This document shows, one piece after another, positions 2,521-7,017 of a stretch of 7,017 nucleotides of DNA. This DNA comes from Escherichia coli (GTDB lineage: Bacteria; Pseudomonadota; Gammaproteobacteria; Enterobacterales; Enterobacteriaceae). The stretch's first letter is position 1. Each line of letters starts with the position of its first letter. The position numbers and the translations under genes are program-made. The notes beneath the pieces were generated by a model that saw nothing but the letters and a program-made list of their open reading frames with translations, was not told the origin of the DNA and made no database searches. The DNA lies in NCBI RefSeq assembly GCF_003334385.1, contig NZ_QOWN01000074.1. One strand, 5' to 3'.

Positions 2521-3006
2521 TCAGTCGATGATGCGCATAATGGCGCTGCATTCCGGATGCTGCAGGGCGTAATCCCGCAGCCGGTAATAATGGACCGTCA
2601 TGGCATAACACTCCGTACGACAGGCATGATGACTGTACGTCATCAGACAGGCAGCAATGCCGGCAGCTTCCGGACTCATTTCAGCGCGGTTACCGTTCAT
2701 GGCATTGAACAGTACCCATGTTTCGTCATCATCGTCATCCGGTTCGGGTGCCATAAATGCCCCGCCGTTGTTCAGGGTGTACAGATTCCAGATACCACCG
2801 CAGTAGTCTTCACACAGACGGTCCATCCAGCCGAAGACACGGGGCTCCAGGGTCACCCACTGTGGAATGAGGCCAAAGTGCTGCGGCCAGAAGCTGATGC
2901 GCTGTTCATCAGGGACTATGGTGGCAACCAACTGAGGCTGGTCATTCCCTGATGCAGCGGTTACGGAAACAGAAGATGTGGTGGAATTATGTGAAATGGT
3001 TTTCAT
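2521..3006 (-). CDS. Antirestriction protein, ArdB/KlcA-like (YfjX/YafX family), 161 aa
   Basis: Track ORF 2521..3006 (-), with AAGGAG Shine-Dalgarno 8 nt upstream of the ATG. Contains an acidic run PEPDDDDDETW and the motif FGWMDRLCEDYCGGIWNLYTLNNGGAFMAPE that I associate with this family. Sits immediately upstream of the radC-like gene, as antirestriction genes do in CP4-type islands. Family call is from memory and gene order. Confidence 0.75.
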   Translation of the reverse strand: MKTISHNSTTSSVSVTAASGNDQPQLVATIVPDEQRISFWPQHFGLIPQWVTLEPRVFGWMDRLCEDYCGGIWNLYTLNNGGAFMAPEPDDDDDETWVLFNAMNGNRAEMSPEAAGIAACLMTYSHHACRTECYAMTVHYYRLRDYALQHPECSAIMRIID

Positions 3007-3060: not shown

Positions 3061-3879
3061 TCAGCGCAGGCTCTCCAGCAGGGTTTCCGCCATCACCCAC
3101 AATGCGCGGTTGAGCTTAATGTCAGTGTCAATGCTGTGAATGGCACGGGTATGGATACGTTTTCCTTTAGCGCTGCGACCTGAAATTCCGCCTTTCAGCA
3201 TATTCTCCTGAATGGTCTGATAAGCACTCCACAGGTCCTTACCGTAATCCTCCCGGCGTCGTGGCGTCAGAATGTCGGCGGTGGTGACGGGCTGATGTTC
3301 GTCACCATAACGGTAAGTCAGTGCCGCCTGTGCCAGCGCCTGGCGTGCCGGTGGCGGCAGAATCAGCGACTGCATGGCATCACGCTTTTCCTCAATCCGG
3401 TCAAACACGCCCACCACCTTGTAAGCCCCTTCAATGACTCTGTCCACCACATTTCCCCGGTGCGGAACACGCACTTCCCCCAGAGACTGACCACAGACGC
3501 ATCCGTTCTGGCAGACGAACCTGAAGTAACCCGGCAGCATCTGGTAGCTGGAGGTACCGTCATGAGAGTTGAGCAGAATAATTTCAGGGACATGTTCTCC
3601 GTTTATCTCTCCGGCCCGCCGCAGACGCAGCATGTGTTTTGTGTATCCCCGGCGGCCCGGGTCGCGCACACGGGTCTGGCAGGCGAAGAATGGCTGAAAG
3701 CCTTCCCGCTGCAGGCTTTCCAGTACGGTGATGGTGGGGATGTACGTATAGTTCTGGCTTCGGGACGTGTGTTTATCTTCCCCGAAAATCCCCGGCACAT
3801 AGTGCATCAGTTCTTCGTGTGTCAGCGGACGGTCACGGCGTATCTGGTTCGCATAACCAAAACGACTGGCTAGTCGCAT
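3061..3879 (-). CDS. DUF932 domain protein (YfjQ/YafZ family), 272 aa
   Basis: Track ORF 3061..3879 (-), MRLASRFGYANQIRRDRPLTHEELMHYVPGIFGEDKH...SHDGTSSYQMLPG...KLNRALWVMAETLLESLR. Closely resembles K-12 YafZ/YfjQ as I recall them. Strong AAGGAG Shine-Dalgarno 5-6 nt upstream of the ATG at 3877-3879. Stop TGA at 3061-3063. Confidence 0.85.
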   Translation of the reverse strand: MRLASRFGYANQIRRDRPLTHEELMHYVPGIFGEDKHTSRSQNYTYIPTITVLESLQREGFQPFFACQTRVRDPGRRGYTKHMLRLRRAGEINGEHVPEIILLNSHDGTSSYQMLPGYFRFVCQNGCVCGQSLGEVRVPHRGNVVDRVIEGAYKVVGVFDRIEEKRDAMQSLILPPPARQALAQAALTYRYGDEHQPVTTADILTPRRREDYGKDLWSAYQTIQENMLKGGISGRSAKGKRIHTRAIHSIDTDIKLNRALWVMAETLLESLR

Positions 3880-3916
3880 AATTTGCTCCTTATCGGTGGT
3901 TAAGATTTACTGGTGT

Positions 3917-3955
3917 AATAAATGAAAAAGCCACGTCTCCCGGAGAAGACGCGGC
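3917..3955 (-). terminator. Rho-independent terminator downstream of the DUF905 gene
   Basis: On the minus strand: GCCGCGTCT-TCTCCGGG-AGACGTGGC (9-bp stem with one G.U pair, plus-strand 3930-3955) followed by TTTTTCATTTATT (plus-strand 3917-3929). Lies in the intergenic region between the DUF905 stop (3979) and the DUF932 start (3879). Confidence 0.6.
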
Positions 3956-3978
3956 CTGATGGGTGAAATGAATGACGT

Positions 3979-4212
3979 TTATTGTCTGAGAAGACCGTCA
4001 CTGGCGAGCCGCGTATTAAGCACCTTTCCGGCATCGGGTTCAGAATTCCGGCAGCGCCAGCGTCGCTGACCTTCCGCGTTGCGGATAACCCGACGGAAAT
4101 GCATTCCCGGGTCATCCTGGATAAACACATTGCGGTAAGCGGTTATGACAGCAACCGCCTGCCCGTATGAGAAAGATCCTTCAGCCAGGACATACTCTGT
4201 GTAACCCGGCAT
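3979..4212 (-). CDS. DUF905-like small protein (YkfF-like), 77 aa
   Basis: Track ORF 3979..4212 (-). Motif [29 protein letters not shown] resembles the conserved core I recall for DUF905 proteins in K-12 cryptic prophages. AGGAG Shine-Dalgarno about 9 nt upstream of the ATG. Flanked by terminators on both sides. Confidence 0.72.
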
Positions 4213-4225
4213 ATCTGTTTTCTCC

Positions 4226-4266
4226 TGATAAATAAAAAGCCTCTGCCACGCGTTGTGACAGAGGCT
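4226..4266 (-). terminator. Rho-independent terminator downstream of the signal-peptide protein gene
   Basis: On the minus strand: AGCCTCTG-t-CAC-aacgc-GTG-g-CAGAGGCT (plus-strand 4238-4266), a GC-rich stem of 8+3 bp, followed by TTTTATTTATCA (plus-strand 4226-4237). Located 25 nt after the stop of the 4291..4746 gene and 25 nt before the DUF905 start. Confidence 0.65.
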
Positions 4267-4290
4267 GAAGCATGAAACTGACTTCAGGGA

Positions 4291-4746
4291 TCAGTTAACG
4301 TTTTTTCCGGAAACGGTAATCAGCAGTGGATGGTAGTCCTGGGGATTGAAAACCGATAACGGCAGACTGACACGATGGCCGTTACTTTCTTCAGTTGCTT
4401 TGATGATTTCGGTTGTGGCGACATTTTCCACGCACTCCGTTTCCAGAAATGCGTCTGTGGTTCGCGTGGCATTACTGTCACCAAAAGCTTCCGTTTCCAT
4501 TTTTCTGGTCACCAGCGTCTGACCATATTTGTCTTTGAGTTGCAGAGTGATGGTGAGGGGGCCAAATCCTTCATCGTTTCCGCCATTATCCAGCCGGAAC
4601 TGGTAAGCACAAATATTTCCCGGGAGCCATATCGTATCTGTATTGCGTATACTGATGTAACGTTGATCCTGTGCCCGGAGTGGGGCAGACCACGTTAACC
4701 CCAGAATGAAGGCGGTAATCATGCAGGTTTTGAACAGGTGAATCAT
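4291..4746 (-). CDS. Small secreted/periplasmic protein of unknown function, 151 aa, with predicted Sec signal peptide
   Basis: Track ORF 4291..4746 (-). N-terminus MIHLFKTCMITAFILGLTWSAPLRA/QDQ has a typical n-h-c signal peptide with an AxA-like cleavage site and no lipobox. Mature part has two Cys (possible disulfide). GAGAGG Shine-Dalgarno about 8 nt upstream of the ATG. Lies 75 bp downstream of the large membrane protein gene with no terminator between them. I recognise no family. Confidence 0.65.
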   Translation of the reverse strand: MIHLFKTCMITAFILGLTWSAPLRAQDQRYISIRNTDTIWLPGNICAYQFRLDNGGNDEGFGPLTITLQLKDKYGQTLVTRKMETEAFGDSNATRTTDAFLETECVENVATTEIIKATEESNGHRVSLPLSVFNPQDYHPLLITVSGKNVN

Positions 4747-4821
4747 GGTATTTACCTCTCTGAGTCATGACGATGACACTGACAAATCAGGTAATAAAGC
4801 GTAAAAGGCGCAGAATAGCCG

Positions 4822-7017
4822 TTATGCCGGTAACTCCGGGGGTAATGCTTCTTCCAGTCGGTTAACCATATTGCCGAGATGGGATGCATCATATTCCATG
4901 ACGGGGCGTTGCCTGATGATACTGACCACCAGTGGTTTGATTAACATATTGGTCGCGGCCCGTTGTTGTATACCGGCGGCGAAAATGATCTCCAGAGCAT
5001 TCTGATCGATAACACGGGCCAGATTCTCGTTCAGATTTTCAATCTCATGTCCGGTCAGCAGGAAACTGCCGGCAAGCCATGTCACCTGCTCCTGAATCAT
5101 TGCCAGAATTTTGACGCGATCTTCTTCAACCAGCGCTCCGGCAATTTTTCCTGATACAGCGGAGGCAATCATTCCCCCCAGAACACCGCCAACCACACGC
5201 CCTGTCAGTGCACCAAATGGTCCCAGTGGACTGAACAGTATTCCGCCCGCCACTGACCCGACAGCACCACCTGCCACACCGGAAGATGCCACGGCAAGAT
5301 TCCTGATGAACTGCGTACCGGAGATCCGTCCCCGCAACATTTTGATCATGTCAGGGCCGGTTGTGACAGCTACCAGTGCCAGAGATGTCACCAGCGTACC
5401 CTTCATTACTTTGTTCAGGGCACTGATATTTCCTGCACCGTTCCCCTTCTGAAGAGCCAGTCGGACAGTCGGGCTGGCAGTCGAAAAATCAATGTGCTTC
5501 AGCATACCCTGAACAACACTGAGCCGGTGGAGTTGCTGGGTTGTGACGTAGACAGCCAGTGTGCGGGTGAAGGTTTTTCCTGCCTGGACAGCAGCTGTCT
5601 GCAGGGCAGCATCGCGATCGCCGGTGCTGAGCCAGAAGACCGATGCCGTCAGGGCAAAACTGATCCCTCCGGCCGCCAGACTGACAACCGAACCCTCGGC
5701 AATATCATAAGTGACCGATTCGATGGTCCCGAACCGGGTGATATTACGGGCCTGAGTATAAGTCAGATGTCCCCGACGAATCAGCCGGGACGCTTCTGCG
5801 GGATCGGTTACACCGGGTACTTTACCTTCGCGGATCTTATTCCTCATGGTTTCAACAGCGCCGGCATACTGATCACGGGGGACTTCCAGTTGCATGGGGC
5901 CATTATTTCCCATGTAACGATACTGTCCGTTTTGTCCGTCGAATGCCGCACCGACGCTACGGGCTGCAGTTGAACAATATTTCGTCTGGATTTCTGTTCC
6001 GCTGACCAGTCTGTCTGCTCCATTTCTGGCATTATTATCACCGAGGATCCGTGCGTTTTTCAGACGGACTCTGTCGACAATATGGTTTCCCCGTTCAGCG
6101 GCAAACCCATGTCCCTGCCCTCCGGAAGCAAACATTTTCTCATTTGTACTCCAGGTTTCCGGCAGTTTCATGAGAATCAGACCATTCGCCGTTGCATCGG
6201 AAATAAAGCTGTTGTAAGGGCGTTCATAAATTTCCTGACACAGTGTTTCTGTTTCGCGACAAAGAGAGGAGCAGTACCATTCCGGATCCGGCTTATGATT
6301 TTCCGGGGCATGATGTACTTCTGTCAGCCCGCAGGAGGCACAGATACGAAGCTCATCCACGTGATGGAATGATACAAAACGGCGACCTTCTGAAAAGGGA
6401 TACCAGTCACCGCCGTCCAGGCAACGATCGAGAAAATCGTCATTCGCTTCCGGTGATAAATTCAGGCGGTTCCGGAAGAGCGTTTTCAGTTCATCAGGTG
6501 TGAATGACAGGTTCTCTTTCAACTGTTCGTTAAACCCTGCCATGTTTCTTTCATACCAGGCATTGTTCAGTAACCAGTTTCCGTCTGCCAGTTCAAATTC
6601 CCTCAGCTCTCCCCGGGAAATCCGTTGAGAAATGAGCGTCAGCCAGATGCGCTCCGTCAGTGAGTCAGGAAGGCTGTAATCGTTTTGCAAACTGGTCAGC
6701 CACGATTTACTGTTGAGCACCGGTTGTTCTTCCAGTGTCTGGCTGATGGCACAGGTCAGTTTTTTCAGCGCCTGGATCTGGCTGGCCGCCCATAGCAGCG
6801 TCACTAATGCAGCCAGCCAGTACAACAACCCGCCCCACCACATCAGTGACGGTGAAATATCGTACTGTAACGCGATCAATGGTGCGCATGCAGAACACGC
6901 CATAAGGAAAAAGGCAGTATAAAAACAGCAGTAATACCCGTTAATTTCCTTGCTGATATCTTCTGGTGTGATCCCGTTCTGCTGAATGTTTTTGATCTGC
7001 AGGGGAACAGCCAGCAG
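4822..7017 (-). CDS. Large membrane protein of unknown function, 5'-truncated at the window edge (>=731 codons visible)
   Basis: Track ORF 4822..6903 (-) of 693 aa; the same frame stays open from 6904 to 7017 by my manual translation (...LLAVPLQIKNIQQNGITPEDISKEINGYYCCFYTAFFL-MACSAC...), so the true start is outside the window. Predicted N-terminal hydrophobic helices (6772..6843 and upstream). Cys cluster C-x2-C...C-x3-C...C at about 6238..6342. Further hydrophobic segments and a glycine-zipper-rich stretch SGVAGGAVGSVAGGILFSPLGPFGALTGRVVGGVLGGMIASAVSGKIAG at about 5134..5301. Stop TAA at 4822-4824. Occupies the slot held by YeeR/YfjW-type membrane proteins or Ag43 in K-12 islands, but I cannot confirm homology to those. 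Confidence 0.7.
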   Translation of the reverse strand: MLAVPLQIKNIQQNGITPEDISKEINGYYCCFYTAFFLMACSACAPLIALQYDISPSLMWWGGLLYWLAALVTLLWAASQIQALKKLTCAISQTLEEQPVLNSKSWLTSLQNDYSLPDSLTERIWLTLISQRISRGELREFELADGNWLLNNAWYERNMAGFNEQLKENLSFTPDELKTLFRNRLNLSPEANDDFLDRCLDGGDWYPFSEGRRFVSFHHVDELRICASCGLTEVHHAPENHKPDPEWYCSSLCRETETLCQEIYERPYNSFISDATANGLILMKLPETWSTNEKMFASGGQGHGFAAERGNHIVDRVRLKNARILGDNNARNGADRLVSGTEIQTKYCSTAARSVGAAFDGQNGQYRYMGNNGPMQLEVPRDQYAGAVETMRNKIREGKVPGVTDPAEASRLIRRGHLTYTQARNITRFGTIESVTYDIAEGSVVSLAAGGISFALTASVFWLSTGDRDAALQTAAVQAGKTFTRTLAVYVTTQQLHRLSVVQGMLKHIDFSTASPTVRLALQKGNGAGNISALNKVMKGTLVTSLALVAVTTGPDMIKMLRGRISGTQFIRNLAVASSGVAGGAVGSVAGGILFSPLGPFGALTGRVVGGVLGGMIASAVSGKIAGALVEEDRVKILAMIQEQVTWLAGSFLLTGHEIENLNENLARVIDQNALEIIFAAGIQQRAATNMLIKPLVVSIIRQRPVMEYDASHLGNMVNRLEEALPPELPA

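Follow-up and report, generated by a model that had tools for sequence, protein, structure and literature searches.

All genes in the window, the 7,017-nt stretch of Escherichia coli DNA analysed here, are on the minus strand according to the ORF list. In minus-strand order, they encode a YeeR-like protein, IrmA, a DUF905 protein (aec70), a DUF932 protein (aec71), an antirestriction protein, RadC, DUF987 and CbeA/CbtA, with DUF5983 after CbtA. One hairpin, T1, lies between irmA and the DUF905 gene and a second one, T2, between the DUF905 and DUF932 genes.

The gene for the YeeR-like membrane protein (6903..4822, 693 aa) is followed by irmA (4291..4746, 151 aa), the last gene of the cargo unit agn43-yeeR-irmA, which was identified from the ORF list and from the RefSeq name 'IrmA family protein' in 100%-identical genomes. 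The DUF905 gene (3979..4212), of the aec70/YkfF family, had been described in the earlier note as having 77 codons, and this was borne out by the ORF and by a match to Pfam PF06006 (E=1.1e-17); the ORF also matches PDB entry 2HJJ (E=1e-15), the NMR structure of K-12 YkfF. The first gene past T2 encodes the DUF932 protein (3061..3879; named from the ORF list and RefSeq naming in identical genomes) and has the Shine-Dalgarno sequence AAGGAG at 3891..3886, and the antirestriction gene (2521..3006) is intact. A search of NCBIfam returned no family for DUF905, DUF932, IrmA or the 693-aa YeeR-like protein.

Positions 3850..4800 match E. coli chromosomes at 100% identity, the RefSeq product names there being IrmA family, DUF905 family and DUF932, and a related copy is present in about 4,340 of 5,426 complete E. 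coli genomes, at a median of three places per genome. The literature name of the cluster is flu-yeeR-irmA(aec69)-aec70-aec71-yeeS-yeeT (PMC6480617), and therefore the DUF905 gene corresponds to aec70 and the DUF932 gene to aec71. In NZ_CP049845.1, a genome with a 100% match to window positions 3850-4800, an IS66-family insertion splits the antirestriction gene, and yeeR is broken by IS21 and IS66 elements (L001:8210-11157). As the antirestriction gene of the window is intact, the window represents a different, less disrupted copy.

Anatomy and strand specificity of T1 and T2

T1 begins 24 nt after the irmA stop codon. Its stem-loop, AGCCTCTGTCAC-AACGC-GTGGCAGAGGCT (4266..4238, minus strand), has a GC-rich stem of 12 bp and a loop of 5 nt, was detected by folding, as an inverted repeat and by its d score, and is followed by the T tract TTTTATTTAT (4237..4228, minus strand). 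The Shine-Dalgarno sequence of the DUF905 gene, AGGAG (4226..4222, minus strand, read from the sequence), lies 9 nt before the ATG at 4212, and the end of the T1 stem 25 nt upstream of this start codon, the distance given by the earlier note. The DUF905 stop codon (3981..3979) is followed at a distance of 21 nt by T2, with the stem-loop AGGCCGCGTCTTC-TCCG-GGAGACGTGGCTT (3957..3928, minus strand) of 13 pairs, G-U included, and a 4-nt loop, detected by fold, d score and covariation. Its T tract (3927..3918, minus strand) reads TTTCATTTAT, or TTTTTCATTTAT if the two closing pairs are left uncounted, within TTT(TT)CATTTAT, and 48 nt separate the end of the T2 stem from the DUF932 ATG (3879).

When folded as RNA, T1 reached -22.2 kcal/mol (z -4.2 against dinucleotide shuffles) and T2 -22.6 kcal/mol (z -6.3). 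On the plus strand, T2 folded no better than the shuffles (z -0.3), T1 gave a weaker hairpin, and no T tract follows either of them. A d'Aubenton-Carafa-type score calculated for both strands of the whole window was positive at two sites only, T1 (d=38) and T2 (d=29), so the claim in the earlier note that hairpins with T tracts lie on both sides of the DUF905 gene holds for the minus strand. A scan of the window with a generic terminator pattern returned 8 sites against 6.3 expected, a count that means nothing by itself, and T1 and T2 were the two with 12-13 pairs.

T1 and T2 combine a stem-loop, a 3′ U-rich tract, a position and direction following a stop codon, and compensatory change, the characters of Rho-independent terminators, and their chance occurrence was considered and rejected. 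Structurally, they are no different from canonical E. coli terminators, with which they share the GC-rich stem of 12-13 bp, the 4-5-nt loop, the 3′ U-rich tract of 8-11 nt, the location just past a stop codon, the single direction and the compensatory evolution of the stem. Their peculiarity is that the next Shine-Dalgarno sequence and ATG come within 15-40 nt, without promoter space. T1 and T2 look like ordinary operon punctuation, with the make-up of standard terminators.

We consider it likely that both elements are canonical Rho-independent terminators for minus-strand transcripts. T1 would end the cargo unit that finishes with irmA, started either from the phase-variable agn43 promoter or from the irmA promoter in the yeeR-irmA gap, and would keep that transcription out of the conserved backbone. 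T2 would halt the transcription that covers the DUF905 gene ahead of the genes for DUF932, antirestriction, RadC, DUF987 and CbeA/CbtA. The distance from T1 or T2 to the start codon that follows is too short for a sigma-70 promoter, so that the DUF905 gene, and probably the DUF932 gene, can be supplied only by terminator leakage or by a promoter overlapping or preceding the hairpin. Both the actual termination at T1 and T2 and this source of DUF905 mRNA are what we infer from the evidence below.

In a predicted fold of the whole irmA-DUF905 gap (4213-4290, minus strand), CAGGAG in the Shine-Dalgarno region of the DUF905 gene pairs with CCCUGA just past the irmA stop codon, forming an outer helix around T1.

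Conservation and covariation of the hairpins

One genome per species was scanned, which yielded 80 DUF905 loci from many Enterobacterales; ORFs were called and neighbouring genes were classed by tblastn. A terminator-like site was defined as a coding-strand hairpin with an energy of -8 kcal/mol or lower and, directly behind it, 5 or more T in 8 nt, and a strong site as one of -12 kcal/mol or better, within up to 60 nt upstream and up to 80 nt downstream of the DUF905 gene. In the island type, where a DUF932 or antirestriction gene follows, 39 of the 47 loci had the upstream site, 42 the downstream site and 34 both. In the plasmid type (ssb, DUF905, ParB-like), weak upstream sites were found at 4 of 28 loci, a downstream site or both sites at none, and a strong site at 0/28; the survey loci are related and so are not independent trials, and the counts are to be read accordingly. 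Elsewhere on the same strand, such sites had a background density of 1.17 per kb, which corresponds to about 0.07 in a 60-nt window, and strong sites clustered within 100 nt on either side of the DUF905 gene and were rare elsewhere. An 8-11-nt T-rich tract follows the hairpins in about 85% of the island loci.

At the upstream position, 27 distinct stems were found, and every one was stable when folded singly. As the MAFFT alignment of the T1-type hairpins was out of register on the 5′ arm, no pair counts are given for them and the own fold of each stem was listed instead. For the T2 family (22 sequences), 93.8% of the cells were paired, and 8 of the 13 pairs had changes on both sides, a level of covariation reached by 0 of 500 shuffles, although this count is no probability because the sequences are related; registers slid along the alignment paired in at most 58% of the cells. 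Exchanges between G-U and G-C were seen at pairs 11-38 and 15-34. The conservation of hairpins at both positions and the covariation of the T2 family are shown directly, as are the anatomy and the strand specificity of T1 and T2.

The hairpin upstream varies with the gene upstream (irmA, Ag43, ykfB or a 150-aa ORF), while its position is constant. In diverged E. coli copies located after an Ag43/Cah gene, another hairpin and T tract precede the DUF905 gene (AGGCCCCGGTCAT..GACCGGGGCT TTTTACTTT), and yet another hairpin does so in copies after the 150-aa ORF. In a third E. coli context, the DUF905 gene starts 5 nt past a 225-aa ORF and the hairpin is absent. T2 was retained, with G-U/G-C exchanges, in all diverged E. 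coli copies examined. In the K-12 CP4-6 island, where ykfB is followed by ykfF (DUF905) and yafX, a hairpin with a T tract is present on both sides of ykfF. The varied stems at a fixed position, the wobble pairs possible only in the coding-strand RNA and the obligatory T tract point to selection for a terminator. In CP4-type islands, DUF905 genes are typically boxed in like this.

Hairpins with T tracts of this kind are also found in K-12 CP4-57 and CP4-6 right before the genes for DUF932 (yfjQ), antirestriction (yfjX, yafX) and DUF905 (ykfF), at L008:8572-8668 (yfjP|yfjQ), L008:15815-15922 (ypjI|yfjX/lfgA), L007:6205-6307 and L007:6542-6630, and there is no promoter space behind them.

T1 also varies among E. 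coli alleles. In two alleles that are about 90-92% identical (L093:601-1022 and L094:601-1023, aligned to window positions 4300..3876), the T1 stem is kept and the T tract carries a 4-nt deletion (GGC----TATTTAT). The loss of four T of the tract in some E. coli alleles means that T1 is not under uniform constraint. The DUF905 gene is frameshifted or truncated in both alleles and frameshifted in L002 too.

The earlier note had regarded DUF905 as cargo that the two terminators insulate from the conserved module. T1 and T2 do flank the gene, but its classification did not stand. In other Enterobacterales, the DUF905 gene is directly beside a DUF932 or antirestriction gene in 47 of the 80 loci; its upstream partner is variable (irmA, Ag43, ykfB, unknown ORFs, DUF932), whereas the downstream partner of the island type is always a DUF932 or antirestriction gene, and at least 5,000 plasmids carry the DUF905 gene in their leading region, with ssb on one side and a ParB-like gene on the other. 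The constant downstream neighbour, the variable upstream partner and the presence in plasmid leading regions make DUF905 part of the conserved backbone, and T1 is the boundary between this backbone and the variable cargo (agn43-yeeR-irmA). Thus, the survey makes the order terminator, Shine-Dalgarno sequence, gene a conserved trait of these islands and places DUF905 in their backbone. An equation of F-plasmid yubM with DUF932 is not supported by the data, as the plasmid gene after DUF905 is ParB-like.

In recombinant E. coli loci, homology begins inside the 3′ arm of T1 (query positions 53-60), and in several of them it extends as far as the final T behind the T2 stem (query position 383). The module junctions therefore coincide with the hairpins, which would suit palindromes that act as DNA, as a protein-binding site, a recombination junction or an ssDNA hairpin in transfer, and the module has relatives in plasmid leading regions, whose DNA arrives in the cell as a single strand. 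We regard such a role as highly improbable, since homology breakpoints at gene boundaries are expected in any case, the T2 pairs that swap between G-U and G-C can wobble only in the coding-strand RNA, T2 folds poorly on the other strand, and a terminator would require exactly this strict link with stop codons and with a T tract behind the stem.

Published expression data and the transcription of DUF905

By RT-PCR in EC958 oxyR, Moriel and colleagues detected a common transcript of agn43, yeeR and irmA but none that joins irmA to the genes downstream, and they reported that the end of the transcript could not be mapped by 3′ RACE (PMC4807369). The best reading of T1 is that it terminates the agn43-yeeR-irmA unit, and it is the obvious candidate for the unmapped end. 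If transcripts do end there, T1 supplies the missing 3′ boundary of this published virulence-associated operon, and offers a simple explanation for the fact that the neighbouring toxin-antitoxin and antirestriction module is not driven by the Ag43 promoter, which is strongly phase-variable.

In K-12, a FliA promoter inside yafY drives ykfB (PMC4183435), and Northern blots detected ykfB RNA but not RNA of ykfF, the DUF905 gene (PMC5389530), a result that fits termination at the equivalent hairpin between ykfB and ykfF. The supplementary tables of a K-12 Term-seq study (PMC7815308) list no 3′ ends for ykfF, ykfB, yafX, yafZ, yfjP, yfjQ, yeeR, yeeS or yfjX, probably because these paralogues are silent. 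The sole nearby entry in those tables is a strong 3′ end antisense to flu, at K-12 coordinate 2,074,672 (minus strand), just past the flu stop codon and 17 nt beyond the flu terminator hairpin read in reverse complement (GGTCCCGGTCATGATGACCGGGACC); this flu hairpin is related to the one preceding the DUF905 gene in the Ag43-adjacent loci L002 and L004.

The gap between yeeR and irmA holds a separate irmA promoter in strain 042 (PMC9431211). Published RNA-seq data for this strain give fold changes in hha-null/hns backgrounds of 3.1/3.9 for flu, 3/3.8 for yeeR and 2.2/2.2 for irmA, compared with 4.9/5.9 for aec70, 5/5.1 for aec71 and about 5 for genes further downstream; irmA is EC042_2244 in this strain and the DUF905 gene EC042_2244A. 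The step from irmA to aec70 fits a unit boundary at T1. As aec70 follows the downstream genes and not irmA, simple read-through from irmA is probably not what feeds the DUF905 gene. These fold changes suggest either that a start sensitive to H-NS/Hha lies between the two genes or that T2 leaks.

Only 15 nt, Shine-Dalgarno sequence included, lie between T1 and the DUF905 start, and every backbone gene that follows a hairpin has its ATG 22-44 nt past it. As no promoter fits into these 15 nt, the DUF905 gene is reachable only by read-through or from a promoter upstream of or overlapping the hairpin, in agreement with the two options, read-through or a promoter within the hairpin region, that the earlier note had named. 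Its further suggestion of a regulated attenuation point was not upheld. Both hairpins persisted in the MFE and centroid folds of 148-nt contexts, in which no competing helix or antiterminator fold appeared, and an Rfam search of the whole window at E<=1 gave zero matches. The space for an attenuator leader is small, with 24 nt from stop codon to stem at T1 and 21 nt at T2. A regulated leader attenuator or riboswitch was rejected on the absence of alternative structures in those contexts and of Rfam matches in the window, together with the short gaps between stop codon and stem.

A scan with the promoter consensus found no site in 3880..4300. With a PWM, the best match near the DUF905 gene was a weak candidate formed by a -35 GTCACA (4259), a 17-nt spacer and a -10 TTTATT (4236..4231), with a score of 7.8, in the top 0.02% of window positions. 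This would place the -35 in the 5′ arm and loop of T1 and the -10 in its T tract, so that the same DNA would end one transcript and start the next, and the different behaviour of aec70 and irmA in strain 042 agrees with such a start. We nevertheless consider it quite unlikely that the DUF905 promoter is embedded in T1, as the candidate -10 is without the near-essential A at position 2 (-11A), T tracts look like -10 hexamers through composition alone, the putative -35 and the candidate as a whole are not conserved in the other T1-type hairpins, and a transcript started there would have a leader of no more than about 12-15 nt.

Related hairpins and known terminator arrangements

Constitutive terminators inside operons set expression ratios in the rpsU-dnaG gap of rpsU-dnaG-rpoD and at the rplL-rpoB attenuator. 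T1 and T2 resemble them as terminators between co-oriented genes with no promoter behind and with dependence on read-through, but the flanking genes may not form one operon here, as the RT-PCR data argue that irmA is not co-transcribed with what follows. A second likeness, in layout only, is to the terminator cascades with processive antitermination (lambda N/Q, RfaH-ops and AlpA-type systems), where serial terminators also precede mobile-element genes without intervening promoters. Unlike in those systems, the analysis revealed neither an antiterminator nor a nut/qut/ops-like site or a loading promoter.

The latter comparison bears on the proposal that the backbone is one long unit with serial terminators before the DUF905, DUF932 and antirestriction genes, expressed only with a processive antiterminator or under special circumstances, for instance on arrival in a new host. 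The 22-44 nt between hairpin and start codon, into which no promoter fits, and the same layout at K-12 yfjP|yfjQ and ypjI|yfjX are in line with it, and a small excisionase/AlpA-like HTH gene is present about 16 kb upstream on the same strand of an identical island. AlpA-type proteins act as antiterminators in other systems. The gene (L096:5272-5478, minus strand, NZ_CP049845.1) encodes 68 aa, is of AlpA-like size and context, and lies beside a YfjI family gene, upstream of the agn43...DUF905 array. However, it scores below the cut-off of the excisionase family, the gene is distant, and the island is mosaic and IS-ridden. Moreover, no antiterminator or loading site was found, matches to the ops (RfaH) element were at chance level (7 against 5.2 expected), and H-NS/Hha derepression alone lifts the expression of all these genes. 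The proposal appears very unlikely on balance, and termination with leakage or an overlapping promoter remains the reading that we prefer.

Two other kinds of element were rejected. REP/BIME sequences occur in hundreds of copies per genome, spread over many unrelated intergenic regions, whereas the present region occurs at a median of 3 per genome, always in DUF905/DUF932 island contexts, and its stems do not match the REP consensus. Frpo/ssi single-strand promoters consist of an imperfect hairpin of about 300 nt with the -35 and -10 in the stem, whereas the T1 and T2 hairpins span 29-30 nt and have no long inverted repeat around them.

In plasmids, the DUF905 gene is flanked by stable covarying hairpins without T tracts, the downstream one being present in 27 of 27 distinct loci with a mean of -18.5 kcal/mol. 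These intercistronic hairpins of leading regions share with T1 and T2 the gene family, the position on both sides of DUF905, the stability and the covariation, but termination is not expected of hairpins that lack the tract, which the island hairpins carry in about 85% of loci. As they flank the same gene without T tracts, hairpins at these places could serve a role other than termination. They might mainly be intercistronic RNA elements, 3′-exonuclease barriers or processing sites, that set the stability of segments of one long backbone transcript, termination being secondary. The presence of such a hairpin in essentially every intergenic gap of the plasmid locus L009 would suit this idea, as would aec70 moving in step with the genes past T2 in strain 042. 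Against it, a stabiliser alone needs no 8-11-nt T-rich tract, and the RT-PCR and Northern data from two loci indicate that transcripts stop at the hairpins. We therefore judge this alternative unlikely, and read the island elements as terminators.

A broader form of the serial arrangement would be that, across Enterobacterales, a row of intrinsic terminators gates the backbone of CP4-type islands, which is homologous to genes of plasmid leading regions, each terminator abutting the ribosome-binding site of the next gene (DUF905, DUF932, antirestriction). Expression would then depend on read-through that is conditional or needs a factor, such as an island-encoded AlpA-like antiterminator, or that takes place just after transfer, and the T-free hairpins of plasmids would be the permissive version. 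We hold this scheme to be very improbable.

In the leading regions of conjugative plasmids, a compact GC-rich hairpin without a T tract is found in nearly every intergenic gap (ssb | DUF905 | ParB-like | psiB). In L009, such hairpins occupy essentially all gaps (495-514, 1908-1928, 3925-3957, 4211-4234 and 6239-6261), and further examples are found in L010-L012 and in the 27 plasmid-type loci among L024-L092. Compensatory changes in the hairpin after the plasmid DUF905 gene include TGCCGGACG/CGTCCGGCA, TGCCGGACA/TGTCCGGCA and GCCCTGCCGGAG/CTCCGCAGGGC.
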